A stretch of 64,000 bases of DNA from an uncultured Gemmatimonadota bacterium (GTDB taxonomy: Bacteria > JAAXHH01 > JABIQT01): NCBI GenBank assembly GCA_964470965.1, contig CAYYIS010000008.1, forward strand, positions 30,731 through 94,730, read 5' to 3'. Of the stretch, positions 2,496-64,000 are shown piece by piece. The translations under genes were made by a program, and so were the position numbers. The notes beneath the pieces were generated by a model that had not been told where the DNA came from, did not search any database, and saw nothing but the letters and a program-made list of their open reading frames with translations. Position 1 is the stretch's first letter. Each line of letters opens with the position of its first letter.

Positions 2496-3479
2496 TCAGG
2501 GACCTCTGTCGTAAATCTCAACATCTACCGGCCTACCTTCATATTCAAACTGGTTCTGGAAGGTAGCTTCGTGTTCGAATCCTTCCCCAAGTAGCGCGCC
2601 GGTTTTCCAATCTGTGTCGTTTTCAGTGAAGGACTGGATTTTTCTGTTCTCCGGCAACGGCAAGGATTGGAGAAGCGCAGGAGCGTGGGAGGTATACTCT
2701 GGATGCAGATAAAGGTCAAGCAGCAGTGTCTGTTCCGTCCAACGTCTATCCGGCTGGATCATAACGTAGCCCACGATGGCACCGGTGGTAGACTTAAGTA
2801 TTCGCGCATCCCGGTTGGGATCCTCTTCAATCCCCTTCAGGAAGGTAAGAAACCCGCCTTCGAAGTTCTTCTGGCCAAACAGTTCAAACGCGATACTCCT
2901 TAAATAAGGCGCGCCGCCCTGCGCGCATAGCACATTCATGGTCGGCCAATCTTTCCAGGTCGGTTTCACGATTTTCACTTCGGCTGAGTTAAAGTAGTCT
3001 GTTTCAAACGTGTCCGATGCCTGGTAGTACATGAAACCAGAGTCCGGTGAGATGCTTCTGAATCCGAAATCGTGGTAAATCCAGTAGGGGTGAGATTGGA
3101 ACCACGTGCCCAATGTCAGGTAACGGCCGTTTCGCATTCCGAAATCCGTCATCTGCTCAGTCATCACAAGCCGGCAGGCGCTCTTTCGGCGTTGTTCAGG
3201 CCTTGTGTACACGTGGCCCAGAATGCCGATACCATCGTACTCCACCGTCATAATGTTGCATATGGGTGTTTCGTCCAGCAAACCCAGGTAGAATCGTGTT
3301 TCCAAATCGGCGATACGACCCGGTTCGAACGCACACTCGAAATGCCATTGGAAGTTCCCAGGTTTGTGCCCCAGAAACGGCACCACGCGCGACCGGAATG
3401 ATGCCTCCGGTGTCAGAACAACACCGATCTCGAGCGGTTCTCCTGTGGTCAGCCGAGTTGATTTTAGCGGTGTGTACAT
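2496..3479 (-). CDS. Hypothetical protein (possible GNAT-like fold, weak)
   Basis: 327-aa ORF with good coding character. No recognisable motif beyond a weak GNAT motif-A-like segment (VYTRPEQRRKSACRLV). Confidence 0.3.
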   Translation of the reverse strand: MYTPLKSTRLTTGEPLEIGVVLTPEASFRSRVVPFLGHKPGNFQWHFECAFEPGRIADLETRFYLGLLDETPICNIMTVEYDGIGILGHVYTRPEQRRKSACRLVMTEQMTDFGMRNGRYLTLGTWFQSHPYWIYHDFGFRSISPDSGFMYYQASDTFETDYFNSAEVKIVKPTWKDWPTMNVLCAQGGAPYLRSIAFELFGQKNFEGGFLTFLKGIEEDPNRDARILKSTTGAIVGYVMIQPDRRWTEQTLLLDLYLHPEYTSHAPALLQSLPLPENRKIQSFTENDTDWKTGALLGEGFEHEATFQNQFEYEGRPVDVEIYDRGP

Positions 3480-3895: not shown

Positions 3896-5317
3896 ATGGA
3901 GCAAACAGGCATCTGTTTTTCGACCGCGGTGAATCTGGTCGACCTCATCCGGAAAAGGGAGATCTCGGTCCGGGACGTCGTAGAGGCTCATCTGGCCCAG
4001 ATAGAACAGGTAAATCCCAAAGTCAATGCCATCGTGACACTGGTGGTGGAGCAGGCCATGGAAGAAGCCGACCGTGCGGACAGGGCCCTGGCCGCCGGTG
4101 AGACGACTGGGCCGTTGTTCGGCCTGCCTATAGCCCACAAGGACCTGGTGGAAACCAAAGGAATAAGGACAACCTGGGGATCCCCAATCCATAAAGATTC
4201 CGTGCCGGATTTCGACGCTTTGATAGTCGAACGACTGAAGAATGCAGGCGCGATAACTATCGGGAAAACCAATGTACCCGAATTCGGAGCCGGGTCGCAG
4301 ACGTTCAATCCGGTGTTCGGTGAGACATTGAATCCGTATGACACATCCAAGACTTGCGGAGGCAGCAGTGGCGGTGCAGCAGTGGCACTGGCCTGCGGAA
4401 TGCAGCCGATCGCGGACGGCAGTGATATGGGAGGTTCGCTTCGTAATCCAGCCAACTTCTGCAACGTGGTCGGCATTCGTACATCGCCCGGCCGCGTACC
4501 AAAGTGGCCCGTAGGCAACGCGTGGTCACCCTTCAGCGTGCAGGGACCCATGGCCCGTACGGTTCAGGATACCGCGCTGATGCTCAGCGCCATTGCCGGT
4601 CCGGATCCCAGATCGCCCATCTCGATCGTGGAACCTGGCAGTATTTTCAGACAGCCCCTTGACCGTGATTTCAACGGTGTCCGCGTTGCCTGGAGCAAGG
4701 ATTTCGGAACGTTGCCGGTCGATCAGCGCGTAACGGATGTTCTCGAATCACAACGTCATGTATTCGGGGACCTGGGCTGTATCGTGGAGGAAGGAGAACC
4801 GGATTTCACAGGCGCTGATGATGCCTTCAAGGTGCTTCGAGCCGCTTCTTTTGCACAATCCTATGAGGAACTGCTCAAAACACACAGGGACCTTATAAAA
4901 GACACTGTAATCTGGAACACAGAAGCAGGCCTGGCACTTAAAGGGTCCGATCTGGCGCGGGCGGAATCCGAACGGACAGAGCTATACCACAGGGTCCGAA
5001 GGTTTATGGAATCCTACGAGTTCATGATATATCCGGTTAGCCAGGTGCCGCCTTTTGATGTGACAACGCCGTACATCACAGAGATAAATGGTGTCGAAAT
5101 GGACACCTATATCGACTGGATGAGTTCGGCATATTTCATAAGCGTCACAGGCTTACCAGCTATCTCCGTGCCGTGTGGCTTCACTTCGAAAGGCTTACCG
5201 GTGGGAATTCAGATCGTGGGACGTCATCAGGATGATTTCGGCGTACTCCAGATGGCCCATGCCTTCGAGGAGGCGACCGGTGTTTGGAAACGGCGTCCCA
5301 ATGTTGTCGGCGCATAA
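3896..5317 (+). CDS. Amidase (amidase-signature family, GatA-like)
   Basis: 473 aa. Amidase-signature motif 'GGSSGGAAVALACG' with Ser-cisSer-Lys context (KDLVETKGIRTTWGS). Confidence 0.8.
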   Translation: MEQTGICFSTAVNLVDLIRKREISVRDVVEAHLAQIEQVNPKVNAIVTLVVEQAMEEADRADRALAAGETTGPLFGLPIAHKDLVETKGIRTTWGSPIHKDSVPDFDALIVERLKNAGAITIGKTNVPEFGAGSQTFNPVFGETLNPYDTSKTCGGSSGGAAVALACGMQPIADGSDMGGSLRNPANFCNVVGIRTSPGRVPKWPVGNAWSPFSVQGPMARTVQDTALMLSAIAGPDPRSPISIVEPGSIFRQPLDRDFNGVRVAWSKDFGTLPVDQRVTDVLESQRHVFGDLGCIVEEGEPDFTGADDAFKVLRAASFAQSYEELLKTHRDLIKDTVIWNTEAGLALKGSDLARAESERTELYHRVRRFMESYEFMIYPVSQVPPFDVTTPYITEINGVEMDTYIDWMSSAYFISVTGLPAISVPCGFTSKGLPVGIQIVGRHQDDFGVLQMAHAFEEATGVWKRRPNVVGA

Positions 5318-5319
5318 GG

Positions 5320-6108
5320 ATGTTTCCTATGGACATGGACACGGTGTTGCACAACCTGGGCGTACGCGATGACACGCTTTCAGAAAATGAAATGAGTCAT
5401 CTGGATGAAAAAGGGTTTCTAACGCTACCCAACATCATGTCTGCCAATCAAGTAGCAGCATTCAGGTCGAGACTGGAAACCTTGATTGAAGAAGAAGGCG
5501 ATGACGCAGGAAAGGAAGTGCATCAGGAAGCGGGGGCGCTAAGGTTAAGTGACTTGATCAATAAGGATCCCATGTTCGATTTCTGCTATACCCATCCAAG
5601 GCTTCTGGCGGCTGTCCGCCAGATGCTTACCTCCGATTTCAAGGTACATTCACTGAACAGCCGGTTTGCGATTCCGGGAGAAGGGAAACAGGGGTTTCAT
5701 ATGGATTGGGGACCGCGTGACGAAGAAGAACGAAAGCTCTCTCAGAACGGTCATTATTTCGTGGCTAATTCTCTATGGCTGCTGGATGATTTCACCGCGA
5801 CAAATGGTCCGACGCGGCTGGTGCCCGGGTCCCACAAGTGGGGGAAATCACCACAGGAGGTGATGGACGACCCGACTTCATCTCATCCAGATGAGGTGAA
5901 GGTTGTGGCCCCGGCCGGTACGGTCGTGGCCTTCAATTCCCATATATGGCACGGCGGCTCGTTGAACCGCAGTCATGATATGCGCCGGGCGATGCACATG
6001 GCCTTTGTACGTCGTAACCTGCCACAGCAGACGGATCAAAAGCAACACCTGCGACCCGGAACTGCATCCAGGTTGGACGAAGAGAAACGTATTTTGCTGG
6101 ATTTGTGA
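5320..6108 (+). CDS. Phytanoyl-CoA dioxygenase (PhyH) family Fe(II)/2-oxoglutarate oxygenase
   Basis: HxD...H pattern (HMDW...; SHIWHGG) and the 'TNGPTRLVPGSHKW' motif typical of PhyH. The start was moved to the ATG after the amidase stop at 5317. Confidence 0.65.
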   Translation: MFPMDMDTVLHNLGVRDDTLSENEMSHLDEKGFLTLPNIMSANQVAAFRSRLETLIEEEGDDAGKEVHQEAGALRLSDLINKDPMFDFCYTHPRLLAAVRQMLTSDFKVHSLNSRFAIPGEGKQGFHMDWGPRDEEERKLSQNGHYFVANSLWLLDDFTATNGPTRLVPGSHKWGKSPQEVMDDPTSSHPDEVKVVAPAGTVVAFNSHIWHGGSLNRSHDMRRAMHMAFVRRNLPQQTDQKQHLRPGTASRLDEEKRILLDL

Positions 6109-8467: not shown

Positions 8468-8836
8468 ATGCGTATTAAGTTATATGAGAAACCCACTTGA
8501 AGCAAATGCAGGGAGGCGGTCAGCCTCCTCGACGACAGGGGGCTCTCTTACGACAGAATTGATTACTACACCGCCCCTCTCACCCGGGATGTACTGGTAC
8601 GATTACTCACTGAAATGGATGCCCGTCCCAGAGACATCATGCGGACCAGTGAAACAACCTATAAAGAGTTGAATTTGGCAGATTCGGACCTGGCCGACGA
8701 TGCGTTAATCGATCTGATGATTCAACATCCTGACTTACTTCAGCGTCCTATTTTGGAGATCGATGACCAGGCGTTGCTGGGCAGACCGACGGATCGGATC
8801 GAGGCGTTTCTGGATGCCGCTATCGCCATGGGGTGA
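8468..8836 (+). CDS. Spx/ArsC-family thiol oxidoreductase with an in-frame UGA (putative selenocysteine) at 8498-8500, forming a UxxC redox motif
   Basis: Continuous reading ATG(8468) MRIKLYEKPT-TGA-SKCREAVSLLDDRGLSYDRIDYYTAPLTRDVLVRLLTEMDARPRDIMRTSETTYKELNLADSDLADDALIDLMIQHPDLLQRPILEIDDQALLGRP... aligns end to end with Spx/ArsC (Spx: LYTSPSCTSCRKARAWLEE...). The TGA sits exactly at the first Cys of the CxxC motif. A hairpin follows 10 nt downstream. The six-frame track split this gene into 8615..8836 only. Confidence 0.7.
8511..8530 (+). promoter_or_regulatory. Candidate bacterial SECIS hairpin (7-bp stem GGGAGGC/GCCUCCU, apical loop GGUCA) 10 nt downstream of the in-frame UGA
   Basis: Sequence gggaggc-ggtca-gcctcct at 8511-8529. 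The spacing and the G/U-containing apical loop resemble fdhF-type bSECIS elements. Confidence 0.5.
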
Positions 8837-9182
8837 ATCTTTTCCTTATTGCTGTTGCGGAGGCGGGCCGGAGTGGGAAATGATCGGGAGAAGGCGAAAA
8901 GGTATGTCGGTACACACATGAATCCGAAACCTTCACCAAAACGGAATATGGGGTGGCGGTGGCCTGTCACACCGCCAAAATCCTGCTCACTCGCAAAAAC
9001 CTCCTTATTCTGGTAGATATCGAGCCTGAGACATACACCCTGAATGTTACAGTAAGTAACAAAACCTGTGTACCAATCCGACAATGCCTCTGTACTCCTG
9101 TTTTTAAAGACGCATCTGGAAGAAAACAGCCGGCAATTCCGATAATTCGTCAATTATCTAATCCGTTCCTCCGGAGGTACTC

Positions 9183-12473: not shown

Positions 12474-13853
12474 GTGTTCAGAACATTGATAATCACTCAT
12501 TTACTGATGTCTTTGACAACCGCGCGCGCTAACGACATAGATTCCTATATCAAGGCGCAGATGAAAGAACGTCATATTCCGGGACTGGCTATAGCGATCG
12601 TGCAGAACGGAGATTTATCTGAATTCCGGGGCTACGGCCTGTCGAGCGTCGAGCACGAGGTTCCCGTGACGGTTCGTTCGATCTTTGAGATCGGTTCCGT
12701 CACGAAGCAGGTCACTGCCGTCGGCATCATGCTGCTGGTCGAAGACGGCAGGGTGGATCTCGACGCGCCCATCAGAACTTACATGAAGGAATCCCCCATT
12801 AGGTGGGACGCAGTCACTATCCGTCACCTGCTGACACATACCTCGGGCATTAGAAATTATACCGGCCTACCGGGATTCGAGCTGTCGCGCCGCATGAACC
12901 GGGCAGCCTTCATACATGAACTGGCAAAGTACCCGCTCGACTTTACGCCCGGAGAAAAATGGTCTTACTCTAATTCCGGATACAACCTTCTGGGTCATAT
13001 CATCGAACAGGCGAGCGACCAAACGTACTGGGATTTTCTGGCCAATGCTGTGTTCAAACCCGCGAATATGGCGGATACCGGGGATCGGGATCTCCAGTAT
13101 GTGATCAAACACCGCGCCACGGGCTACGAATGGATTGATGATTCACTGCTGGGACGTGACTATGACCTGACGGATTTATTCTCCGCCGGCGCCATGGTCT
13201 CCTCGTTGGCGGATCTTGTTCGATGGAACGCGGCGCTCTCAGAGATTGATCTGTTACAGGCTTCCAGTATGAGAGAACTATGGAAACCGGTAACGCTCAA
13301 CAATGGGGAAACCTATCCATACGGTTTCGGATGGTACATTGAAAATATCCGGGGTTACCGGCGTCTCAGGCACAACGGACAAACGGCAGGTTTTTCTGCG
13401 AACTATACGCACTATCCGGATCAGAACCTGTCGATCATAGTCCTATGCAATCTGGGAACCATCGGCCTGGCAGGGGATATAGCTAACGGTGCGGCAAAAT
13501 ACTACATTCCGGGCTTATCATTAAAAAATGCCGTCACCATTGATGACGTTGCGCCGGAGTTGACAAAGTCCCTAAAAAAATTACTGGACGACAGATGGAA
13601 CAATATCTTGCAGCTGGAAAAATTCACCGGCAATGCAAGAAAAAAATTGATCACTGACAATGCTGTCGGCGTCAACAAGCGCCTTGCGACTTATGGAAAG
13701 CCGACAGCGTTCGACCTTATCGGGCATGAACAAATAGAATCTATCACCACGAGATATTACAGAGTTGTAATCGGGAACAATTTTCTGGTCTTCCGGGTTG
13801 TTGCAACTGATAGCGGCCTTGTCGACGACATGACCCTTATGGAAGAAGAATGA
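12474..13853 (+). CDS. Serine hydrolase, beta-lactamase/PBP (class C-like) family, secreted
   Basis: 459 aa with signal peptide. Active-site 'SVTKQ' (SxxK) and 'YSNSGY' (YxN) motifs. Confidence 0.75.
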   Translation: MFRTLIITHLLMSLTTARANDIDSYIKAQMKERHIPGLAIAIVQNGDLSEFRGYGLSSVEHEVPVTVRSIFEIGSVTKQVTAVGIMLLVEDGRVDLDAPIRTYMKESPIRWDAVTIRHLLTHTSGIRNYTGLPGFELSRRMNRAAFIHELAKYPLDFTPGEKWSYSNSGYNLLGHIIEQASDQTYWDFLANAVFKPANMADTGDRDLQYVIKHRATGYEWIDDSLLGRDYDLTDLFSAGAMVSSLADLVRWNAALSEIDLLQASSMRELWKPVTLNNGETYPYGFGWYIENIRGYRRLRHNGQTAGFSANYTHYPDQNLSIIVLCNLGTIGLAGDIANGAAKYYIPGLSLKNAVTIDDVAPELTKSLKKLLDDRWNNILQLEKFTGNARKKLITDNAVGVNKRLATYGKPTAFDLIGHEQIESITTRYYRVVIGNNFLVFRVVATDSGLVDDMTLMEEE

Positions 13854-14626
13854 CATGGGATTTTTTAGGAGAAACTATGAGTCTGGAACCACATGAAATA
13901 GATCATTTTCACGGAGAAGGTTATCTGATCTTCCCTGCATTGATTCACGGGGAAAAACTCACCCGTTATAAATCCAGCCTGGCTGAACTGGTGACGCGGG
14001 CGAACGGAATGGAGACGTCACAGGACGGGTATTCATTACAGCCTGATAAAAACGGGGAGTTGATACCAGGTCGTCTTTTCAAAGTCCAGGGTGTATGTGT
14101 GGTGGAACCGCTTTTACTCGACCTGGCCCGTGAATCCGAAATCACGGACCGCATCGCCTCTTTAATCGGTCCGGATTTGCATATGTTCGGCTCCAAGTTC
14201 TTCCCGATGCTGCCCCACGGCGGAACCTCAACCGGCTGGCACCAGGACAACCACTACTTCGGAACGCAGTCCGATCGCGTCGTAAGCTGCGGAATCTACC
14301 TTGAAGAGTCGGATCGCTCCAATGGATGTCTCAAACTTTTGCCGAAGAGCCACGCCACCGGAAGCTTGGTGGCCCACACCCACGGCAGCGGCACTTTCGC
14401 CCACGGCAATTGGACCGAAGTAGACGAATCTCAGGCCATCGATGTGGTATGTCCCGGGGGCACCGTCGTCCTGTTTTCCGCCAATCTGCTCCATGGGGCC
14501 ACCATTAACACCAGCGCCCGTTCCAGATACAGCACCGCCTGGCATTACATTCCGGCGGATCTGGATCTGGAAATGTTTCCTTTCGAGAAATATCAGGATA
14601 GGCATGAAGTACGTGGTATTGATTGA
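13850..14626 (+). CDS. Phytanoyl-CoA dioxygenase (PhyH) family oxygenase
   Basis: 258 aa. 'TGWHQDNHYF' (HxD) plus the downstream 'LLHGA' His, and 'GCLKLLPKSH'. The true start may be the ATG at 13877. Confidence 0.65.
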   Translation: MTWDFLGETMSLEPHEIDHFHGEGYLIFPALIHGEKLTRYKSSLAELVTRANGMETSQDGYSLQPDKNGELIPGRLFKVQGVCVVEPLLLDLARESEITDRIASLIGPDLHMFGSKFFPMLPHGGTSTGWHQDNHYFGTQSDRVVSCGIYLEESDRSNGCLKLLPKSHATGSLVAHTHGSGTFAHGNWTEVDESQAIDVVCPGGTVVLFSANLLHGATINTSARSRYSTAWHYIPADLDLEMFPFEKYQDRHEVRGID

Positions 14627-17879: not shown

Positions 17880-18965
17880 TCAAAACCAGCTGTCATAAGG
17901 GTTAGCCGAATCTTCTAATGGTAAAGAAACCCTGTCCCCCCTTATGTGGGACAGCCTGGCAGCCATGGCCATTTCCATATGTTTACGAGCGGTCTTTCCC
18001 GTACACAGCTCAAATTCCGGCTTTTTACCCTCTATCATATCAATCATGGAACGGGCCATGCGGTGGTGAGCGTTGATCCATTTCTGGCTGCCGGACACCT
18101 CCTCATGAGCCAGGATTTCCCAGCGATCGTCCTCCAGCAGCTTCGGGTTGGTGTGCGGGTGGTAATAGATATCCGGACCGTCCTGGGTAGGCCCGGGCAA
18201 ACAAAGCGTTCCTTCGGTGCCGTGAATATCGATACGGTACGGGTTTTCGACACCGTCGCCCGCATAGGACTCGAATTCGGCATTGAAACCATCGAACTGG
18301 TAGTGGGCCCAGATGCCGTTACCGGCGGACAATCCCATACCGAACACACCGTCCTTCTTATCAGCCGGCGTGGCAGAACGCCCGTCCTGGGTGATGATTG
18401 ACTGGCACCAGAGCGGTGCCCCGAATAGCTGCCACAGAAAATCGAAGAAGTGCGGATAAAGATCTATTAACCACTGATCCCCGCCCAGTTCGCCGCCGAA
18501 GCCGTACATGCGCGCCCACCTTGGTTCCCCAATCTTTCCGCTGCGTATCATCGGTATCGCAGTGGTTTGAATTTCGGGACGTCCGCGCCAGGGGTGCGCC
18601 ATTACAAGCATTGCGCCGGCACGGTCGCAAGCCTTCAGCATCTGATCCGCTTCTGCCGGAGTTCGGGCCAATGGTTTTTCAACGTATACATGTGTGCCCT
18701 GTTCGGCGGCGGCCATCACCATGTCCAGATGGTTGCTCATTTCGTGGGTCGCGAGCACCGCGATGTCGGTCTCTTCGACACTCAGCATCTCACGGTAATC
18801 CGCGTAGGCCTTCCGGGCGCCGGTACGTTCGACAGCCTTGGCGCGTCCCCCTTCATCCGGATCGGCAAGCGCAACAATCTCCGCCCCCGCCACACCGACA
18901 AATGCCTGATCGAGCGAATGCCCGTAGTCACCACATCCTGTGTGACCGATGATACATACCTTCAT
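17880..18965 (-). CDS. Gfo/Idh/MocA-family NAD(P)-dependent oxidoreductase
   Basis: 361 aa. N-terminal Rossmann 'MKVCIIGHTGCGDYG' and 'EKPLARTPAEADQM'. Confidence 0.75.
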   Translation of the reverse strand: MKVCIIGHTGCGDYGHSLDQAFVGVAGAEIVALADPDEGGRAKAVERTGARKAYADYREMLSVEETDIAVLATHEMSNHLDMVMAAAEQGTHVYVEKPLARTPAEADQMLKACDRAGAMLVMAHPWRGRPEIQTTAIPMIRSGKIGEPRWARMYGFGGELGGDQWLIDLYPHFFDFLWQLFGAPLWCQSIITQDGRSATPADKKDGVFGMGLSAGNGIWAHYQFDGFNAEFESYAGDGVENPYRIDIHGTEGTLCLPGPTQDGPDIYYHPHTNPKLLEDDRWEILAHEEVSGSQKWINAHHRMARSMIDMIEGKKPEFELCTGKTARKHMEMAMAARLSHIRGDRVSLPLEDSANPYDSWF

Positions 18966-19272
18966 GAGGCCGAAACTCCTTAAGACAGGTTCTCCACGAA
19001 AGGCTTAAAATTCCGTTTGGCAGCCTTCCATTCCAGCAGCTTGTTGCAGATATAGACGATCACTGTAAATGAATTCACCGCCGTGTTCAGATGGAACAGA
19101 TTGGTACCGACTCCGGCTTCGGTGATCCTGAGTAATTCATGATTGGTGACAGAATCCCATATATCTTCATGGCGGTTAGACCACTGTGTGTCCATCCGGA
19201 AATCCCCGCAAACACATTACCCCCAAGCCCCCCACTGCTGCGGGCACAGGTAAATGCGCATACTTCTTCGAA

Positions 19273-19715
19273 TCAGGTGTCACGATTCACACCGTCGCAA
19301 TACGAGTTCTCCTGCCCTGCCAACCTGTGTATCGCTGGCCCCGCCTCCGGTGCGGTTAACTTGGTGTCGAGATCCTTAATGCGACCATCTTTTAAACCGT
19401 AGATCCACCCGTGCATGGAAAGCAAACATTGATATGTTTGAACCTTGAGGACTTCCACGGCGTGCTGCAACACTGACAGACAATTAAAATCCGTATGCAA
19501 CATCCGATTTGCTATGTTGCGGTGCACAAATACCTCTTCCGGTTTCAACTCCAAGATCTGATTTGGCGGAACCCGGCTGTCGGCACAATCAACCCAGAAA
19601 TATTCCGGTGTCCGCTGTTGGGCAATTTTTTAAACATATCCGGTGTTTCATCTATGACACCTTCCGCCTACTTTTCGTTTTTTTCCAAGAGTTGATTCAA
19701 AGATTTGAGTGACAT
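19273..19715 (-). pseudogene. Beta-class carbonic anhydrase pseudogene: nonsense codon, 1-bp deletion in a poly-A run, and a ~85-codon internal deletion removing the Zn ligands
   Basis: Minus-strand reading gives [33 protein letters not shown], then a frame shift, then [61 protein letters not shown] joined directly to [16 protein letters not shown]. The E. coli Can/CynT block containing HYGCGG is missing. Its ATG overlaps the upstream gene's stop (TAATG). Confidence 0.7.
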
Positions 19716-22375
19716 TATGGTAGATTTCTGTTCTTGGGTAAACTCAACAAATTTGAGAATATCCTATAGGCTCCCGGTACTCCAGCCGGAAGCTGACGAA
19801 ACCAAGCATAGCCGGTGTATATGTAAAATCCTTCCCCATAACGCGCCTCTACAAGACCGCCTGCCTTCGGTTCTTCACCCGGATCCTGTGACGCCATCAG
19901 CGGGGTATACCGATCGTCCCATTCACCAAAAAAATACAACCCTCGTTCCTGCACCCACCCATCAAAATCTTTTTTCGAAATCTTGTTCGGAATATTAAAA
20001 ACAGGATGGTTTGGCTCCAATATTTCAACAGGTGCATCTTCTCTTGTGACCCTATCGTGCGGCCTGCTAATATGGGCCGGATAGGGACTGAACTGAGTGC
20101 GGTTGAAAACGTACTGATTATATTGTACGATGTAAGTACCGCCGTTCCGTACAAATTCTAAAAGCCGGTGGTTGAACGCTACCAAATCTTCCCGCACCGC
20201 ATAGGCCCGAATACCTGAAATAATAACGTCATAAGCCTCCAGATCCCCACTCGAAAGCTCGTTCGTGTCCAACAAATGAACTTCGACCCCCAGTTGCGCC
20301 AGAGATGCGGGGATACCGTCTCCGGCCCCCACGATATAACCTACGTTTAATCCTTCGGCAATCTCAACTTCAAACACTTTGACTTCAGAAACCGCATCTC
20401 GGTACAGGTGATGTGGATTAATATGGGGATAGCTGATCTCCACGTACCCCTCCCGATACTCTTTTCCATCCCATTCCGCCACTGCATTAAAGAAATAGGT
20501 GCCGCTTTGTATGGAAGGTGACGGCATTACTTCGAAGATGAGGGTAGTCTCCTCATTTTCACGGTTGAAGTCGAACGGATAACCAGCTGGATTCACAGTC
20601 CATCCATCCGGTACTTCGAGTCGTATGTTCGCGGCAGCGGGCCCGGGTACATTATTACGGACCGTCACCTGGAATGGTCGCGACCGCTTCTCGCGGGATA
20701 CGGGGACAACTGCGTTTTCAGGGGTCAGCCTTACGGATAAAGCCGGAGCGATCATGAGCGGACGGCGGATCTCCCCTATGGCCTGATCCGCATACCGGTA
20801 TTCTGCCGGCTGCACGATCTCAATCGTTGTGCTATCGACCATAAACACGGCATGGCCGACCACCCCGGTCGGACGCCACGGCAGCCCTATCATATCATCG
20901 GAATCCACTACGACTGTACTGGCATATTTCGATTCCCGTCTCCAGTAGGGCTTACTGGTACGGGCGTAATCGCTGACTGTCACGGAAACCGGGTTGTCCA
21001 TCTGCTGGTTGTACCCCAGCGGATTTTTAATGACATCTCCGGATTTAATCTTCCATGTTTCCGGTGTTTCGAGCCAGGTCGCAACCGGTATGATCGGGAT
21101 TCTGCTGCGGTTTAACAACTGCAGGTTCACCCCGAATGTGCTGCCTGGGATCACCACCGGATCGTCCACGAGCACCTCGAAGGACAAACCGAGGGCCAGT
21201 GAGACCACATCAACAAAGTCCTGTTCTTTGAGATCTGAAAGAAACAGCAGGTAGTCTTTATCAGCCGCATCTATATGGCTCATCACAATATTGCGACGAA
21301 CATTGCGGAGGTGCTGCAAGCCTCTTAGGGTGGCGGGCAAGACGGTTGAGGGCTCGAAAGGACGGTAGGCTTCAATAGCCTCACGCGCGGCCATGTCGGT
21401 TAATTCCAGCGTGGGCGCGATCATACGATTGAATGAAACGTCATCGGATACATTAGCGAACCGCATGAATGAAGTATCGATACCATCGAACAAGGATCTG
21501 TCGCGTGTGTCTGGCGGAACTTCAGTGGTCCGTTCCACCAGCTTGATTTTGGTGGTTGCGGGCCCTTTACGCTGAATGGACCCCATATCCTGTGACCGGT
21601 GCTGGCTGCGGCCGGCAAGGCCTATTTCTTGATAGGACCTCTGGTATATGGGGCTGTATTCGCCGGTATTAATAAGAAGGGAATCCAAACTTTCAAAAGA
21701 AGCGCGCGTGTTGCTTATATACAGTTTACCGGCCTGCCATGGATGCAGTCCCTGTGCGATCTGATCCGGAAACTGGTCAGGATCTGCTGCTACCCGAAAG
21801 GCCTCACGGGTCGTAATGCCTGCCGCCTGATGCTGCCCGTGCCCGTCCCGTGGGGAACCCGCGAACACAGATACTATCACATCGGGACGAAAACGGCGGA
21901 TAATCCGAACCACATCATCAAGAAGCAGGTCTCGCCCCCACAGTTCGAACGCTTCGTCTGCGTTCTTGGAAAATCCATAGTCAAATGCCCTGGTAAAAAA
22001 CTGTTCCGCACCATCAAATTTACGCGCTGCCAGCAGCTCATCCGTACGGATCGCTCCGATGCCGTCATATAACTCGGGTCCAATCAGGTTCTGGCCGCCC
22101 TCTCCCCTGTTCAGGGCCATGTAAGCAGTCCGCACATGCATGCCCCTGCTTACATAAGCCAACAGGGAACTCCCCTCATCATCCGGATGGGCACCCGTAT
22201 GAAGCATGCTGGCTACCACCGGAAGCTTCTGAAGCGCCTGTGCCAGGGTAGCAGCACCACGACTATCGGGCAGGGGACGGGCAAGTCCTGCTTTTGCGTC
22301 GAAAATTGTGGAAGGCAGCAAAAGGCACAGGCACAAAGGTGTCGCCCAAGAAAGATTTGCCCATACACGAGTCAT
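19715..22375 (-). CDS. PIG-L/LmbE-family N-acetylglucosaminyl deacetylase fused to a C-terminal ThuA/class-I-glutamine-amidotransferase-like domain, secreted
   Basis: The LmbE signature 'HTGAHPDDE' lies near the N-terminus after a signal peptide (start taken at MTRVWANLSWATPLCLCLL). A C-terminal 'GYIVGAGDGIPASL...YDVIISGIRAY' ThuA-like fold. 886 aa from this start. Confidence 0.65.
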   Translation of the reverse strand: MTRVWANLSWATPLCLCLLLPSTIFDAKAGLARPLPDSRGAATLAQALQKLPVVASMLHTGAHPDDEGSSLLAYVSRGMHVRTAYMALNRGEGGQNLIGPELYDGIGAIRTDELLAARKFDGAEQFFTRAFDYGFSKNADEAFELWGRDLLLDDVVRIIRRFRPDVIVSVFAGSPRDGHGQHQAAGITTREAFRVAADPDQFPDQIAQGLHPWQAGKLYISNTRASFESLDSLLINTGEYSPIYQRSYQEIGLAGRSQHRSQDMGSIQRKGPATTKIKLVERTTEVPPDTRDRSLFDGIDTSFMRFANVSDDVSFNRMIAPTLELTDMAAREAIEAYRPFEPSTVLPATLRGLQHLRNVRRNIVMSHIDAADKDYLLFLSDLKEQDFVDVVSLALGLSFEVLVDDPVVIPGSTFGVNLQLLNRSRIPIIPVATWLETPETWKIKSGDVIKNPLGYNQQMDNPVSVTVSDYARTSKPYWRRESKYASTVVVDSDDMIGLPWRPTGVVGHAVFMVDSTTIEIVQPAEYRYADQAIGEIRRPLMIAPALSVRLTPENAVVPVSREKRSRPFQVTVRNNVPGPAAANIRLEVPDGWTVNPAGYPFDFNRENEETTLIFEVMPSPSIQSGTYFFNAVAEWDGKEYREGYVEISYPHINPHHLYRDAVSEVKVFEVEIAEGLNVGYIVGAGDGIPASLAQLGVEVHLLDTNELSSGDLEAYDVIISGIRAYAVREDLVAFNHRLLEFVRNGGTYIVQYNQYVFNRTQFSPYPAHISRPHDRVTREDAPVEILEPNHPVFNIPNKISKKDFDGWVQERGLYFFGEWDDRYTPLMASQDPGEEPKAGGLVEARYGEGFYIYTGYAWFRQLPAGVPGAYRIFSNLLSLPKNRNLP

Positions 22376-22380
22376 ACAAG

Positions 22381-23178
22381 CTATCCTTTCCCGTCGGGCA
22401 GGGAACGCCGGTAAAGCCATAGGAATCCAGCCAACACGACGCAGATCATTGCCAGGACCCATCCAAACCTGCGACGCGTGCTGACTTCCTCTCTGACCAA
22501 GAGGAGTTCCTTGTCCACGTTTTTCAGACTGTCCCTGAATGAATCTGCCATCGGAATGAGAGTATCGAACAAAAACACGTGTGAAGCCTGTTCCCTGTAT
22601 GTGTTTCTGATTCGGTCTAGCTTGCCGAGTATCGGATCTACCGGCACCCCGGTAGGCAGTAATTCCAATGCAGCCATCCTCGTCTCCGCAATCGGGTCCA
22701 GGATGCCATTGACCGCCGTAACGAATTGATCGAGCGTCGCATTTTCATGGCAGTCTTCACAATTATCCGGAATCGAAATTTCCGCTACCTGGGGCTGGCG
22801 GATGATATGGCTGCCATGACAATCGATACAACTGGGCCAAAGGCCTCCCGCCAATCCGTGGGGACTCGCAAGGTAATTAGTCATCTGGATCTGATGACAT
22901 GTACCGCACACTTGGTGGACTTGATCGGGCTGCAGTTCCCCCTTGAATCCGGCTTCCAAGTCATGGGAAATCTCCTTTACCATGGAAGCGGCGGAACCGC
23001 CATGGCACTCCTGACACGCTATGCCGGCCATCTGATGAACGCTTCCCCGCCATTCCGGGACAGGAGCGGCCATCGCCTCCTGTTCCAGGGCGGCATGGCA
23101 GAGCACACAGGCATTTGAAGATTGGGCCGCTACTGTCGCAGGTAGCAGAAACACTAGGAAGAGCATCAGATTAAGCAT
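22381..23178 (-). CDS. Pentahaem c-type cytochrome, membrane-anchored
   Basis: 265 aa with five CxxCH motifs (CVLCH, CQECH, CGTCH, CIDCH, CEDCH). N-terminal signal and a C-terminal TM helix. Immediately downstream of the cytochrome b gene. Confidence 0.8.
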   Translation of the reverse strand: MLNLMLFLVFLLPATVAAQSSNACVLCHAALEQEAMAAPVPEWRGSVHQMAGIACQECHGGSAASMVKEISHDLEAGFKGELQPDQVHQVCGTCHQIQMTNYLASPHGLAGGLWPSCIDCHGSHIIRQPQVAEISIPDNCEDCHENATLDQFVTAVNGILDPIAETRMAALELLPTGVPVDPILGKLDRIRNTYREQASHVFLFDTLIPMADSFRDSLKNVDKELLLVREEVSTRRRFGWVLAMICVVLAGFLWLYRRSLPDGKG

Positions 23179-23183
23179 AGCTT

Positions 23184-24338
23184 TTAAGGCTCCACTATGA
23201 TCTGGGGCAATCCGTATACGTCGAAATGGTACTTCGTGCCTAATATGATCTGATCCGTGTCCGAAATATGCCCCAGGACACCCAGCGCGATCGTGAAGCC
23301 AATGAAGAGTATACCAGCTACAATGGCCACCGGACGCTTACCCGGATGTCTTTCAGGCGAGCGATCCCAAAACGGCAACAAAAGCAGTGCAAGGATTACG
23401 ATGCCAGTGCCTAAAAGCCCTATCAGTTCCGGGAAAAACTTCAACACCTGGTACAGCGGTAGAAAATACCACTCCGGTTTCACACCCAGTGGCGTATTGA
23501 AGGGATCCGCCTTGTCCTCCAGCGGCACTGGATAATACACGACCATGAGAATCATGGTTGCGATTATTAGCAACACCATAATCGATTCTTTGAGGACATG
23601 CTGTGGAAAAAACGGCTTGCCCCCTCTCCGGGTAAGTTCCTCGGAGTTGGGTTCGGGGGTGTCGGTGCTGTCCAGCGTCGAGATGCCCAGATACCGAATC
23701 AGGAACAGGTGAACGCCCACGAGCAACATAAACACCCAGGGAAGAACGATCACATGCACCGTGAAGAAGCGGGTCAATGTCGATTCCGATACGATCTCCC
23801 CGCCGCGCAGGATCAGGAGGGTGTGCTCACCAACGATGGGCACTGCGCCGGCAATTTCGGTACCAACCACCGTGGCCCAGTAGGAGACCTGGTCCCAGGG
23901 CAGCAGGTAGCCTGTGAATCCAAACATCATGGTGACACCCAGCAGAGCGAACCCGAATAACCAGGTAACCTCTCTCGGTTTTTTATATCCTCCGTAAAAA
24001 TAAACGCGTACCACGTGCAACAGCAGGAAAGCGATCATGAAATTAGCGCCGTAGACATGGGACTGGCGCATCAACCATCCGAAAGGGACTTTCTCCATGA
24101 TAAACTTAATGCTGTCGTAGGCCGTGCTTGCGGATGCTTCGTAGTATATCATCAATAGCAGGCCTGATATGGCCTGGGTAATGAAAAATGCGAACGTGAT
24201 CGTTCCAAAGGAAAACAACCAGTTCACATGCTTCGGAACGGGTTTGGTTAGGTGTTTACGGGCGAAGTCGATGGCAGCGGAGAGTTCCATCCGCTCCTCG
24301 ATCCATTCGTAAAGCCATCGTATTAGACGTCCCGCCAT
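23184..24338 (-). CDS. Cytochrome b subunit of a Rieske/cyt b (bc-type) complex
   Basis: 384 aa. Haem-ligand His pairs in TM helices ('VRVYFYGG', 'HLFLIRY'), 'PEWYFLP' and 'DKADPFNTP' motifs typical of cytochrome b/b6 with fused subunit IV. Confidence 0.85.
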   Translation of the reverse strand: MAGRLIRWLYEWIEERMELSAAIDFARKHLTKPVPKHVNWLFSFGTITFAFFITQAISGLLLMIYYEASASTAYDSIKFIMEKVPFGWLMRQSHVYGANFMIAFLLLHVVRVYFYGGYKKPREVTWLFGFALLGVTMMFGFTGYLLPWDQVSYWATVVGTEIAGAVPIVGEHTLLILRGGEIVSESTLTRFFTVHVIVLPWVFMLLVGVHLFLIRYLGISTLDSTDTPEPNSEELTRRGGKPFFPQHVLKESIMVLLIIATMILMVVYYPVPLEDKADPFNTPLGVKPEWYFLPLYQVLKFFPELIGLLGTGIVILALLLLPFWDRSPERHPGKRPVAIVAGILFIGFTIALGVLGHISDTDQIILGTKYHFDVYGLPQIIVEP

Positions 24339-24342
24339 AAGT

Positions 24343-24813
24343 TTATGCTCCGAGCACGACTTTATCGCCGATTACACTGACACCGAGCCGCACCAGCGGG
24401 ACCGGTGGCGGCCCACCTGTAACCTGTCCCTTTATATCGAAGCGGCCACCGTGACAAGGACAGATAAATTCCTGGTTTTTCTGCACCCATTTCACAGCAC
24501 ACCCCAGATGTGAACATGTCGCCATGAACGCGACAAATCCGTCCGGTCCGTTCACTACCAGCGCCGGTCGACCCCGATAGGTCACAACCTTGGCGGCGCC
24601 GGTCGGCAGTTCGGCCAGATCGATCTCGACCTTGCTGACACCTTTCGCTTCCGGCGGCGGCTCAATGTACCTTATCACAGGATATAGGAAACTCATCAGG
24701 CCCAGGCTGCTTATCAGCCCCATACACCTGGCCAGGAAACGGCGGCGCACTTCATATTTCGTAGGAGAACCTGTGGACGGCATAACGTCGTCCGGCGAAT
24801 TTAGCTGACCCAT
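24343..24813 (-). CDS. Rieske [2Fe-2S] iron-sulfur protein with Tat signal
   Basis: 156 aa. Rieske boxes 'CSHLGCAV' and 'CPCHGGRF'. Twin-arginine motif 'RRRFLARC' near the N-terminus. Confidence 0.85.
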   Translation of the reverse strand: MGQLNSPDDVMPSTGSPTKYEVRRRFLARCMGLISSLGLMSFLYPVIRYIEPPPEAKGVSKVEIDLAELPTGAAKVVTYRGRPALVVNGPDGFVAFMATCSHLGCAVKWVQKNQEFICPCHGGRFDIKGQVTGGPPPVPLVRLGVSVIGDKVVLGA

Positions 24814-31740: not shown

Positions 31741-32571
31741 TCATCCTTCCAATGGCTCCTCGTCGTTGAACACCTGCGTCCGCTTCATTACGCGTCGTTC
31801 CGTGTCGGGAAACGGTTCCCGACGGTGCATGGTAGGCCGGTTGTCCCACATGACAAGGTCGCCGACCTGCCAATGATGTGTCCACTCGAATTGAGGCTGC
31901 GACTGATGTGCGATCAGGGTATCGAGTAATTCCCTACTTTCGTTTTCGCTGAGACCGACGACGTATTTGGTCAGATGCGGCCCCACATACAGCGAACTTC
32001 TGCCGGTGTCAGGGTGTGTGCGCACCACAGGATGGTCAACTGGATAAGGCGGGTTCTGTTCCTCCACATAATGACGGTGCACCGCCCGCAAACCCTTCAA
32101 TCGTCTTTTCATCTCATCGTCGAGCGCCTCGTATGCGGCATAGCAGTTACACCACTGGGTGGCGCCGCCGACCATTGGAATCTCAACCGCGTACAGCACC
32201 GATATGGTGCCGGGTTTGGGCATGTATGAGAGGTCTGAATGAAAGCTAATTTCCTCATTGCCGAGGGCACCGATCGGCTCCCCATTCTCCTTCAGGTTGG
32301 AGATAATAAAGATTTCCTTCACACGCCGATCCCGTTGCTTACGGACATGTTGTACAGGCTTACCGAAATAGGAGGTGAATCGCACCTGATCCTCATCGGT
32401 AATCGTCTGATTTCGAAAATAGATCACACAGTGATCCTGCAATGCCTGTCGAACAATATTGACTTCCCGGGAAGAGAGTGGCAAACTCAGATCCAGTCCG
32501 GTTATTTCCACGCCCAGGGCGCCGCCGGTTGGGTGAACCTGCATGTGATCGTGCTTGTTCATGGTTGACAT
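31741..32571 (-). CDS. TauD/TfdA-family Fe(II)/2-oxoglutarate dioxygenase
   Basis: 'WHSDLSYMPKPGTISVLYAVEIP...GGATQWCN' and C-terminal 'MHRREPF' are typical TauD motifs. Start chosen at the ATG preceded by GAGGAG at 6 nt spacing. Confidence 0.7.
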   Translation of the reverse strand: MSTMNKHDHMQVHPTGGALGVEITGLDLSLPLSSREVNIVRQALQDHCVIYFRNQTITDEDQVRFTSYFGKPVQHVRKQRDRRVKEIFIISNLKENGEPIGALGNEEISFHSDLSYMPKPGTISVLYAVEIPMVGGATQWCNCYAAYEALDDEMKRRLKGLRAVHRHYVEEQNPPYPVDHPVVRTHPDTGRSSLYVGPHLTKYVVGLSENESRELLDTLIAHQSQPQFEWTHHWQVGDLVMWDNRPTMHRREPFPDTERRVMKRTQVFNDEEPLEG

Positions 32572-32581
32572 GAACCGCTCC

Positions 32582-33394
32582 TCAACGGTAGGTGAGTTTC
32601 GGTTCCTCACCGAGCATTTTTACACCACTTACCATTATGCTGTTGTTGGATTCATAGGCCGCTTTACCGATCGGACGGGTGGCAGGTGAATGGTATCCGA
32701 TGCGTACGGACTTTCGCCACTGGTCGGTGCGGTTTACATCGGACCAGTGGATCAGGTAATAACTGAAAAAGACGACGTCGCCGGGGTGGGCGGGAACCGC
32801 AACGGTATCCACCTTGTCAGGATGATACGTATCCGGCGGGAGATAGGGCCGGGTATGTTCGCCTGTAATATGTTCGAGGGGCCCTCTGCAATGACTTCCA
32901 GGCACCACCTGAAGGCATCCGCTTTCATGGGGTGTTTCATCCAGGTGTATCAGGCAATCCACGAAATCAGGTCCATCATGGGGGTAAAACGGATAGTCCT
33001 GGTGCATAGGAAACGGCGTACCTTTCTCCGGCGGTTTGGCATGAAGGACCGTGTGATGCCACTGCACATCGTCACCGAGCAGGGCCCGAAGAGATGCTAC
33101 CAGGCCCGGATGGAATATCACACGACTCCACGCGGCGGAATACATATGCGGATTGGATATCAACACAGCCTTTGTCTTATACCGTTCATTCTCCTCCAGA
33201 TAAACATCCCGCCACGGCCCGCGCCATCCGATGCTGTCTTCCCCCCACCATTCCTCGATCAGCCACTTCATCTCTCGGTTGAGTTCATCAACATCGGCAG
33301 GCGGCACCAACCCTTCAACCTTCACATAACCGTCCCGCTGATACAATGCAACCTGCTGCTGCGACAACATGTAATTATGCCTTTTCAGCAACAA
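32582..33394 (-). CDS. Phytanoyl-CoA dioxygenase (PhyH) family oxygenase
   Basis: 270 aa. 'FPMHQDYPFYPHDGPDFVDCLIHLDETPHESGCLQVVPGSH'. An alternative start at 33370 would remove the 20-nt overlap with the upstream gene. Confidence 0.7.
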   Translation of the reverse strand: MLLKRHNYMLSQQQVALYQRDGYVKVEGLVPPADVDELNREMKWLIEEWWGEDSIGWRGPWRDVYLEENERYKTKAVLISNPHMYSAAWSRVIFHPGLVASLRALLGDDVQWHHTVLHAKPPEKGTPFPMHQDYPFYPHDGPDFVDCLIHLDETPHESGCLQVVPGSHCRGPLEHITGEHTRPYLPPDTYHPDKVDTVAVPAHPGDVVFFSYYLIHWSDVNRTDQWRKSVRIGYHSPATRPIGKAAYESNNSIMVSGVKMLGEEPKLTYR

Positions 33395-60848: not shown

Positions 60849-61685
60849 CTATTCCGGCTTCCGTCTATAGAGCTGCCGGCCGTAAGGTCGGGCATCACCG
60901 TCGTACTTTGGGTGCAGTGGCTCCACAAGCGCCCGCGCCCGCGCCGGCCACCCGCCAGACAGCGGCTGTATTTTCGCCACCATCTGTGCCTTGATGGGTT
61001 CAGGAAGGGCGTCGAACCTCGGTTGATACCAGAGCGTGATCACCGTGCGCCTCTCATCGGATGCATTGCCATGTGTGGCGTGAAGCAACCGCGCGTCCCC
61101 AATGAGCAAATCACCGGCTTTCACTGGCACATCGAGTTCATCGGGCCGTTGGGAAAATGCGGGCATCCCTTCATCATACGTCGAAGACAGTTCTTCCGAG
61201 TGAGGTTCATCGATTACATCGTGCAGAGCGTTGTGAAGCCGATGGGACCCAGGAATTACACGAAGACAGCCGTTCTCACGACCGGTGTCGGACAGGTAGT
61301 ACATCAGAAAAACCTGTTGAGGATCGGGATCGTAGGCGGTAGGATCCTGCCACGCAAACCAGTCGTAATGCCAGAACAGCGCCGGGCTGTGAGGCGGCTT
61401 GGATATCACATATCCATCGGTATAAGTGGGATGCTCAAACCCTAGAGCTTTGATTGCGTCCAGCGCAGGTTGCCAGGCTATGAGTTCCGCGAATATCGCG
61501 TCGGCGGACGTCCGCACCATGCTGCCCTGGGTAAGGTTTTGCCCTGGATCTTCCAGGTTCTGAGTTTCCGCCAGACGGGTCGTTACCTCGCTCAGGCGCT
61601 TGACGAACGGTTGGGTCAGAATGTCTTCGAACAGGCAGAATCCGTGTTCTATGAGTTGGGCGTATTTTTCCGATCTATTCTTCAT
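60849..61685 (-). CDS. Phytanoyl-CoA dioxygenase (PhyH) family oxygenase
   Basis: 278 aa. 'FWHYDWF' (HxD), 'GCLRVIPGSH' and 'LLHATHGN'. Confidence 0.7.
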   Translation of the reverse strand: MKNRSEKYAQLIEHGFCLFEDILTQPFVKRLSEVTTRLAETQNLEDPGQNLTQGSMVRTSADAIFAELIAWQPALDAIKALGFEHPTYTDGYVISKPPHSPALFWHYDWFAWQDPTAYDPDPQQVFLMYYLSDTGRENGCLRVIPGSHRLHNALHDVIDEPHSEELSSTYDEGMPAFSQRPDELDVPVKAGDLLIGDARLLHATHGNASDERRTVITLWYQPRFDALPEPIKAQMVAKIQPLSGGWPARARALVEPLHPKYDGDARPYGRQLYRRKPE

Positions 61686-62908: not shown

Positions 62909-64000
62909 TTAAAATTTAAAATTCATGCCCAGTGTCGGTATAACCGGCAACTGCTTCACAACATTCGGTTTCGTGTTTAAATTCTGTGTGTCGTACTGTA
63001 TGAACCATTCGTTGCGGCGGCTGTACACATTGAAAACCTGCAGGTACCACTGTGCGTTCTGCCCAAACACGCTGAAGTCTCTGGTAATGCTCAGATCCAG
63101 CCGATGGTAGGGTAACAGGCGCGCACTGTTGCGGGCAGCAGGCAGCACGAAGTCGTCGTCCGGCAATATACCGGTTGCCGGGGATCGCAGCGAATACCGG
63201 GCAGACGCCGGGGTGAATGCCTGTCCGGTGGCATAGACGAAATTCGAGCCTAACGTCCAATCGCCGGTCTTGAACTTGCCCACCAGGGACAGATCATGTC
63301 GGCGATCGTATTTGGGCGGAAATGCCTGGCCCCGGTTCAGTTCGGTGAAGGTCCTCCGAGTCCATCCAAGCGTATAGCCGATCCATCCGGTAAGCGCGCC
63401 CGTCCGGCGATTCAGGAACAGTTCCACACCGGTGGCATAGCCGCTGCCTCCGGTCTTGAAAACATCGTTCGATTGGCTGCTCTCTCCATCGGCCGACTGG
63501 TTGTTGTCAAGGACAACCAGGTTGTTTAACCGTGTAAAATAACCTTCGATCGACAGCTGATACCGCTCCGACGGCTCCCACTCGAATCCCGTGACCGTCT
63601 GCCATGAAAATCCCGGCGTAACGGTACTATCCAGGGGCACCCAGAAATCACCACCACTGAACCCTTCCGTGGTAATGAGCTGGAGGTACTGGTGATACAG
63701 GCCGCCTCCTGTTTTAAATCGCACCGTAGGAGTCACGAGATGGCTGACGGACAATCTGGGTTCGATATCAAGACGGCTCTGCTCACTGAAGTAATTACCG
63801 CGGATTCCCAGGCGGACGGTCGTATTATCCAAGGCCTGCCACTGATCCTGTCCGTATAGAGAAAGTAGATAAGGATTCAGTTTCAGATTGAGCTGATCCC
63901 GCTGATTGAACGATTGTCTAAAGTTGAAATCGTACCGGGTGGCCAGGAATCCTGCCCTGATACTGTGGTCGCTGCTAGCGAAGAAATCCAGGTCGCCTTT
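62909..64000 (-). CDS. TonB-dependent outer-membrane receptor, C-terminal beta-barrel portion; 5' end outside the window
   Basis: The reading frame stays open to the window edge. Beta-strand-rich sequence with alternating aromatic residues and a C-terminal '...NFKF' Phe terminus characteristic of OM beta-barrels. Confidence 0.7.
   Translation of the reverse strand, partial: KGDLDFFASSDHSIRAGFLATRYDFNFRQSFNQRDQLNLKLNPYLLSLYGQDQWQALDNTTVRLGIRGNYFSEQSRLDIEPRLSVSHLVTPTVRFKTGGGLYHQYLQLITTEGFSGGDFWVPLDSTVTPGFSWQTVTGFEWEPSERYQLSIEGYFTRLNNLVVLDNNQSADGESSQSNDVFKTGGSGYATGVELFLNRRTGALTGWIGYTLGWTRRTFTELNRGQAFPPKYDRRHDLSLVGKFKTGDWTLGSNFVYATGQAFTPASARYSLRSPATGILPDDDFVLPAARNSARLLPYHRLDLSITRDFSVFGQNAQWYLQVFNVYSRRNEWFIQYDTQNLNTKPNVVKQLPVIPTLGMNFKF

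Follow-up and report, generated by a model that had tools for sequence, protein, structure and literature searches.

Cytoplasmic beta-class carbonic anhydrases (CAs) of the Can/CynT type (type II, 'clade B'), including E. coli Can (PDB 1I6O/1I6P) and P. aeruginosa psCA3 (4RXY), carry an N-terminal helix, a CxDxR motif, the segments FVHRNxAN and DxNCLSVLQYAV, and a C-terminal HGWxYGxxDG element. The zinc ion of E. coli Can is held by residues C42, D44, H98 and C101. Genes for such enzymes are also found in can–sulP pairs and as SulP–CA fusions (Felce & Saier 2004), with the can2–sulP arrangement of A. ferrooxidans as one described example (PMC6458275). SulP proteins of the Rv3273-like clade have no STAS domain, always adjoin can2 and are sometimes fused to it (PMC6458275), and that paper, citing Felce & Saier 2004, gives STAS-less SulP proteins next to can2 as predicted bicarbonate transporters. 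Natural, lineage-specific inactivation of a beta-CA is known from Brucella, where CA pseudogenes with frameshift-type lesions are reported to cause CO2 dependence and loss of the enzyme is tolerated where CO2 is plentiful (bioRxiv 10.1101/721597; PMC6915039). Our search of the literature on CAs in Latescibacteria found nothing useful.

Here we analyse a CA locus in a 64-kb stretch of DNA, called the window throughout, from an uncultured marine bacterium that is probably related to Latescibacterota. From the observed homology, the lesions and their reproducibility, and the conserved synteny, we conclude that the region very probably contains a pseudogene, fixed and without function, that descends from a gene for a cytoplasmic Can-type beta-CA and stands beside a decayed sulP gene, with the history proposed below. 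Its retained parts match Can/CynT-type enzymes residue for residue (E 1e-33 to 1e-38) and preserve each of the elements listed above; unlike those enzymes, the window gene is dead, with a nonsense codon, two frameshifts, residues 99–176 including the HxxC motif gone, the stop codon lost and invariant residues mutated. As in known can–sulP pairs, a related outgroup locus has a beta-CA gene followed directly by a STAS-less Sulfate_transp gene, and a further relative has a CA gene followed by a SulP–STAS–CA fusion of the kind already described. In the window, in contrast, both partners are inactivated and SulP is down to 66 recognisable codons. This SulP resembles the Rv3273-like clade in its arrangement, and a bicarbonate role would be probable by analogy with the prediction in the literature. 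The Brucella pseudogenes resemble the window gene in kind, but each of them stems from one recent lesion in a cultured pathogen whose phenotype was measured, whereas the window has an old, multiply damaged gene of an uncultured marine bacterium, and there CA loss comes with loss of the neighbouring transporter.

A Can-type carbonic anhydrase remnant in a conserved gene block

The CA pseudogene occupies positions 19273..19715 of the minus strand, running from the ancestral ATG (19715-19713) to a present-day TGA (19275-19273), with the ancestral end at 19303. Three minus-strand frames together spell out the protein: the first reads MSLKSLNQLLEKNEK and then meets a TAG at 19670-19668, the second is entered by a frame switch and continues into ...VLKV, and a later stretch supplies the HGW-containing C-terminal part. 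Once repaired, the protein matches Pfam PF00484 (Pro_CA) at 68.9 bits, where the cut-off is 25.7, with an E-value of 8e-19; the match covers only profile positions 2-55 of 156. Alignment to solved Can-type beta-CAs (4RXY, 1I6O and 1DDZ) places residues ~3-92 and ~174-209 of ~215, with the middle absent. We further built a beta-CA HMM from 119 homologues and ran it over the six frames of the 64 kb, where it hit one site only, the CA pseudogene (E 7e-43; HMM positions 28-91 and 175-209). No second CA was found in the 64 kb, either with this six-frame HMM or with Pfam searches of ~60 open reading frames. The first zinc-ligand motif, CxDxR, is present as CADSR at ~19581-19567 in a shifted frame, and the invariant Gly preceding its Cys is now Asp (G43D). 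The second motif, HxxC (CGHYGCGG), is absent, and so is the uninterrupted frame of about 200-230 codons that typifies the beta-CA family.

Upstream of the remnant lies an intact PIG-L/LmbE-family gene (19715..22462, minus strand; 915-aa open reading frame, 886 aa in the JGI call), whose TAA (19717-15) overlaps the ATG of the CA (19715-13) as TAATG. The start overlap is kept in orthologous loci in nucleotide alignment. The presumed operon resumes downstream with an intact gene for a 361-aa Gfo/Idh/MocA oxidoreductase (17880..18965, minus strand), whose length and position are the same in every related locus. The earlier note had read this stretch as a minus-strand beta-CA translationally coupled to LmbE through TAATG, and both the three frames and the ATG/TAA overlap are as it claimed.

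A search of a collection of 5.8 billion proteins returned two intact 215-aa proteins (P0001 and P0002) with 80% identity to the window CA, the closest intact CAs in that collection. They are encoded on contigs L008, L009 and L010, which come from related marine organisms and share the window's gene arrangement: LmbE overlapping the start of CA, CA, Gfo/Idh/MocA, and ClpS on the opposite strand. The comparison with an intact CA and with the same locus in relatives that the earlier note had called for could thus be made at an identical locus. A more distant intact CA of 213 aa (P0005; 62% identical) comes from the metagenome-assembled genome "Candidatus Latescibacterota bacterium SI072_bin148" and serves as the outgroup. 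LmbE-based scans of genome and metagenome collections added only distant loci (33-35%) and one 71% contig that ends inside LmbE; the informative loci came from exact-protein look-ups.

Five lesions inactivate the gene

To place the damage we used blastn pieces and affine pairwise nucleotide alignment against the intact syntenic orthologues, which revealed five lesions (all on the minus strand). The first is a TGG to TAG change at 19668..19670 that turns Trp16, invariant in 117 homologues, into a stop codon; the earlier note had called this a nonsense codon at the conserved Trp of the N-terminal helix, and the aligned intact orthologues indeed have TGG there. The same TAG occurs in contigs L001, L011 and L012-L014, described below. 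The second lesion is the loss of one nucleotide at 19622..19631 (around CDS position 84), where the window reads AAAAAATT-GCC and the orthologue GAAAAACTGGCT. That one base is gone agrees with the earlier description, but the A7 run from which it was said to be missing is now A6, and the lost base is ambiguous within 19631-19622, being either part of the A6 run (19631-19626) or a G of TTGGCC.

Three more lesions follow. Lesion three is one inserted T that changes AAGGT to AAGGTT (GGT to GGTT) at 19442/19441 (19441..19443; CDS position 274), with the result that the retained codons KHI(I>N)VC are out of frame and read QTYQCL. Lesion four is a deletion of 235 nt (3n+1) whose junction is a C at 19422 (19421..19423), a position that aligns to both position 378 and position 613 of L008. 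It takes orthologue codons 99-176 (G99-C176; 78 codons) plus 1 nt, and with them the central helices and His100 and Cys103 of CGHYGCGG, which we take to be two of the zinc ligands in Can-type enzymes. Since the deletion is 3n+1 in length, it restores the frame after the preceding +1 insertion, at LSMHGW. In the last lesion the ancestral stop TAG at 19303..19305 has become TCG, so that the window reads ...GQEN-S where the orthologue ends ...EQEN*, and the frame runs on for 11 codons through former intergenic DNA to the TGA at 19275-19273.

What had looked like a clean in-frame deletion of ~85 codons joining VLKV to HGWIYGL therefore does remove HxxC, but is really a +1/-235 pair with a net loss of 78 codons. 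Likewise, the three sites named in the earlier note are all damaged, and the extra T and the stop loss raise its count of three lesions to five. Separately, we considered a reassignment of TAG in the genetic code and rejected it: the code is standard, and TAG is an ordinary stop that ends 10 of the 49 window genes.

Divergence between two pseudogene lineages and the residual reading frame

A sister lineage, known from four further contigs (L012-L015; from ENA, with a TARA Oceans run among the sources), is 92.8-95.8% identical to the window over the CA region and has all five lesions. Contigs L012-L014 add two private frameshifts, one a base lost in ATGTTT near the second lesion and the other a base inserted in the CADSR codons. 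Comparison of the window with L012 over the last 948 nt of LmbE gives 2.4% divergence (dS 0.058, omega 0.26), and over the pseudogene and spacer 7.2%. In the ancestral codon frame, 21 nonsynonymous and 10 synonymous changes separate the two pseudogene lineages. The resulting omega of 0.56 is compatible with neutrality (P = 0.12) and higher than the 0.21 of the intact pair L008/L009 over the same codons (P = 0.006).

We also scored columns with a conservation of 90% or more across 117 homologues; 58 such columns are retained in the window. The window is mutated at 10 of these 58, including W16*, F27M, Q35R, G43D (next to the ligand Cys) and G60E, and L012 departs at 13, while the 119 intact homologues depart at 0-6 (median 1). 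In addition, the window has lost 26 conserved columns altogether through deletion.

A residual 93-aa reading frame with a TTG start (19273..19554, minus strand) is still open. It joins CA residues ~55-92 and six frame-shifted codons to the CA C-terminus and the 11 read-through codons, and gene callers report it as a 'Pro_CA' protein of 84-104 aa. With the central strand, the helices and two zinc ligands missing, the fragment cannot be a CA. It might still be conserved as a small protein, truncated and non-catalytic, that was exapted from pieces of the CA and is kept under purifying selection (omega ~0.3) in at least two marine lineages. Several features fit such a protein: the frame is open in 8 of 8 variants and in both lineages; omega for the part under it is 0.26-0.30 (7-8 nonsynonymous, 7 synonymous; nominal P = 0.03 against neutrality), with 4, 3 and 8 differences at codon positions 1, 2 and 3; no indel separates the window from the sister lineage within the 282 nt, compared with four in the stretches on either side; and a Shine–Dalgarno-like GGAAGAGG stands 5 nt upstream of an internal GTG. 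The 5′ 54 codons of the pseudogene, by comparison, have an omega of 1.29 (14 nonsynonymous, 3 synonymous), but the contrast between the two parts rests on tiny counts and is not significant (Fisher P = 0.12). The case for constraint draws on 15 substitutions only, with the P of 0.03 uncorrected, and several observations run against it: radical replacements fall at family-invariant sites (N78K, S to F and D to A), the start codon is not the same in both lineages, and the Shine–Dalgarno-like motif is coding sequence for KPGEV that also occurs in intact orthologues. We accordingly regard a conserved small protein as unlikely and favour a pseudogene.

The lesions are old and very probably fixed

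The earlier note had argued for genuine decay and against a sequencing artefact, and the independent assemblies bear this out. Contig L001 (JGI sample 3300008735) matches window 22963-16849 at 99.77% over 6115 nt, with 14 substitutions and 0 gaps, and hence carries every lesion; every lesion is likewise present in contig L011 (JGI sample 3300008738). The truncated reading frame forms a cluster of eight variants (P0003) drawn from JGI, ENA, NCBI and Logan assemblies, and 8 of 8 have the identical 235-nt deletion junction, ...(S/F)MHGW. Because the lesions are the same in independent assemblies and in a sister lineage ~7% diverged, and intact orthologues stand at the same locus, the gene is a fixed, old pseudogene and not an artefact.

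A real pseudogene could in principle be a segregating variant, with intact alleles coexisting in the species and function kept at the species level. Metagenome assemblies give a consensus sequence only, and the clade appears to have polymorphism of this sort, as a TAA nonsense codon is present in some assemblies of the outgroup SulP gene and absent from another. Against this, the nearest intact CA among the 5.8 billion proteins is only 80% identical, the deletion is in all eight close variants, and the lesions are older than the 7% split; we therefore consider coexisting intact alleles very unlikely. Sequencing or assembly error in an otherwise intact gene, through homopolymer errors or a mis-join, would have in its favour that one lesion adjoins the A6 homopolymer and that the window is an assembled sequence carrying no read information. 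This is scarcely credible when each lesion is identical across projects and assemblers (JGI, ENA/TARA, NCBI, Logan) on contigs that differ from the window by SNPs, when all recur in the diverged sister lineage, and when a nonsense codon, a stop loss and a 235-nt deletion are not homopolymer errors. That a functional CA is still made by recoding, through TAG read-through and programmed frameshifts, can be dismissed outright: its sole support is the net in-frame result of the +1/-235 pair, while the His/Cys zinc ligands and ~78 core residues are physically missing, TAG terminates genes elsewhere in the window, the additional frameshifts differ in the sister lineage, and conserved residues are mutated.

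A decayed SulP gene adjoins the dead carbonic anhydrase

Between the CA pseudogene and the Gfo/Idh/MocA gene lies a 71-aa open reading frame (18980..19195, minus strand; homologous stretch 19186-18989) that is the stump of a STAS-less SulP-family (Sulfate_transp) transporter gene, overlooked in the earlier note. It matches the last 66 residues of the outgroup SulP (402-467 of 469) at 42% identity (tblastn E 1e-13), and the alignment score of 121 compares with 27 ± 4.2 for shuffled sequences, 0 of 5000 of which reach 121. The stump ends 14 nt before the Gfo start, in the same place as the outgroup SulP. In the sister lineage (L012) it is frame-shifted, and in the intact-CA lineage (L009) it is reduced to the last 26 codons.

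The outgroup contig preserves the full block in the order cytochrome b, multihaem cytochrome c, PIG-L (886 aa), beta-CA (213 aa), SulP (469 aa), Gfo/Idh/MocA (361 aa) and ClpS, with a 166-nt gap between CA and SulP and a 9-nt gap between SulP and Gfo. In its 469-aa SulP only PF00916 was matched (residues 28-382), and there is no STAS domain. The 5′ breakpoint of the SulP deletion could not be mapped on the outgroup, whose intergenic DNA has no nucleotide similarity to the window. Two other relatives differ in this respect: P0007 (58% identical CA; L019:4001-6912) is followed 15 nt on by a 752-aa Sulfate_transp–STAS–Pro_CA fusion, giving a locus with two CA domains and a SulP, and P0010 has no SulP.

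A 166-nt segment (19079..19244, minus strand) is present in the window lineage and its sister and absent from L008-L010. It comprises most of the SulP stump and ~58 nt of unassignable spacer, which means that the apparent insertion in the window is mostly stump sequence since lost by L008-L010. A mobile element or a non-coding RNA had been considered for this segment and was rejected, as the window contains no other copy of it and Rfam gave no match at E <= 1.

The outgroup SulP gene itself varies. In two assemblies that lie 8 SNPs apart (L016:1479-2888 and L017:1272-2681; SI072_bin148 and an ENA assembly), it has an in-frame TAA at codon 100, and in a JGI contig (3300072015) with an identical outgroup CA it is intact at 469 aa. 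The nonsense codon appears to be polymorphic in the outgroup, which suggests that the SulP transporter is repeatedly expendable in this clade.

Proposed history of the locus and its meaning

Read from the outgroup, the ancestral order would have been PIG-L/LmbE, beta-CA, STAS-less SulP and Gfo/Idh/MocA, probably co-transcribed. By parsimony, the ancestor shared by the window lineage and L008-L010 would have lost ~1.2 kb of sulP, with the C-terminal stump left over. The CA would have stayed intact in L008-L010, where the stump would later have shrunk further. The CA of the window lineage would then have lost its selective value and gathered the nonsense codon, the -1 and +1 frameshifts, the 235-nt deletion and the stop loss. 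All five would have arisen before the split of the two sublineages now ~7% apart, one of which subsequently gained its two additional frameshifts. Parsimony over the three lineages thus indicates that the transporter gene was probably lost first and the CA second. Judged from the gene sequences, the can–sulP module is one that decayed as a whole. The selective reason may be that dissolved inorganic carbon is abundant in the habitat, or that the genome encodes a further CA or inorganic-carbon system outside the window; the earlier note had likewise pointed to ample CO2/bicarbonate or a replacement CA.

No catalytic product is predicted to be possible from the locus, and its DNA would be at most a transcribed spacer upstream of the Gfo gene. 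One practical consequence is that the 'Pro_CA' calls of 84-104 aa, present in at least eight public data sets, should be flagged as pseudogenes and not counted as CA capacity. The related loci also form a natural series of three states, namely CA with SulP, CA with a SulP stump, and a dead CA with a SulP stump. This series speaks for can and sulP acting together as a single inorganic-carbon module and suggests that some pelagic heterotrophs can do without the module, as would fit a habitat high in dissolved inorganic carbon or a backup system. There is no new mechanism here, CA pseudogenes with CO2-dependence phenotypes being already known in Brucella. What is new is the SulP stump adjoining the dead CA, in a case of gene loss that is well supported but ordinary.

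Other features of the window

The last ~90 nt of the SulP stump and the spacer before Gfo (18966-19078, minus strand) are ~85% identical to L008-L010, though non-coding and with small indels; they may persist by carrying translation or transcription signals of the Gfo gene. At the other end of the block, the 915-aa LmbE reading frame and the cytochrome c gene overlap by ~80 nt (22375-22462, minus strand). The true LmbE start is probably the internal Met30 (MTRVWAN...), because 886 aa is the length called by JGI and found in the outgroup. Directly upstream of LmbE, at 22381-24813 (minus strand), are Rieske, cytochrome b and multihaem (c7/NapC-like) cytochrome c genes in the same order as on the outgroup contig, and together they look like a conserved bc-type complex cluster running into LmbE–CA–(SulP)–Gfo.

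Across the whole window, Rfam searches, a tRNA scan and a promoter/terminator scan gave nothing above background. Three open reading frames, at 2496-3479, 62909-63832 and 8740-9153 (all minus strand; 327, 307 and 137 aa), are without a Pfam match at E <= 1e-3. Elsewhere the window holds four PhyH-family dioxygenase paralogues and one of the TauD family (5284-6108, 13850-14626, 32582-33394 and 60849-61685; also 31741-32610), as well as four Gfo/Idh/MocA oxidoreductases, xylose-isomerase-like TIM barrels, a DUF6807 protein and an alpha-L-fucosidase. By predicted function this is a dense sugar or organosulfonate catabolic gene set, typical of a heterotroph.
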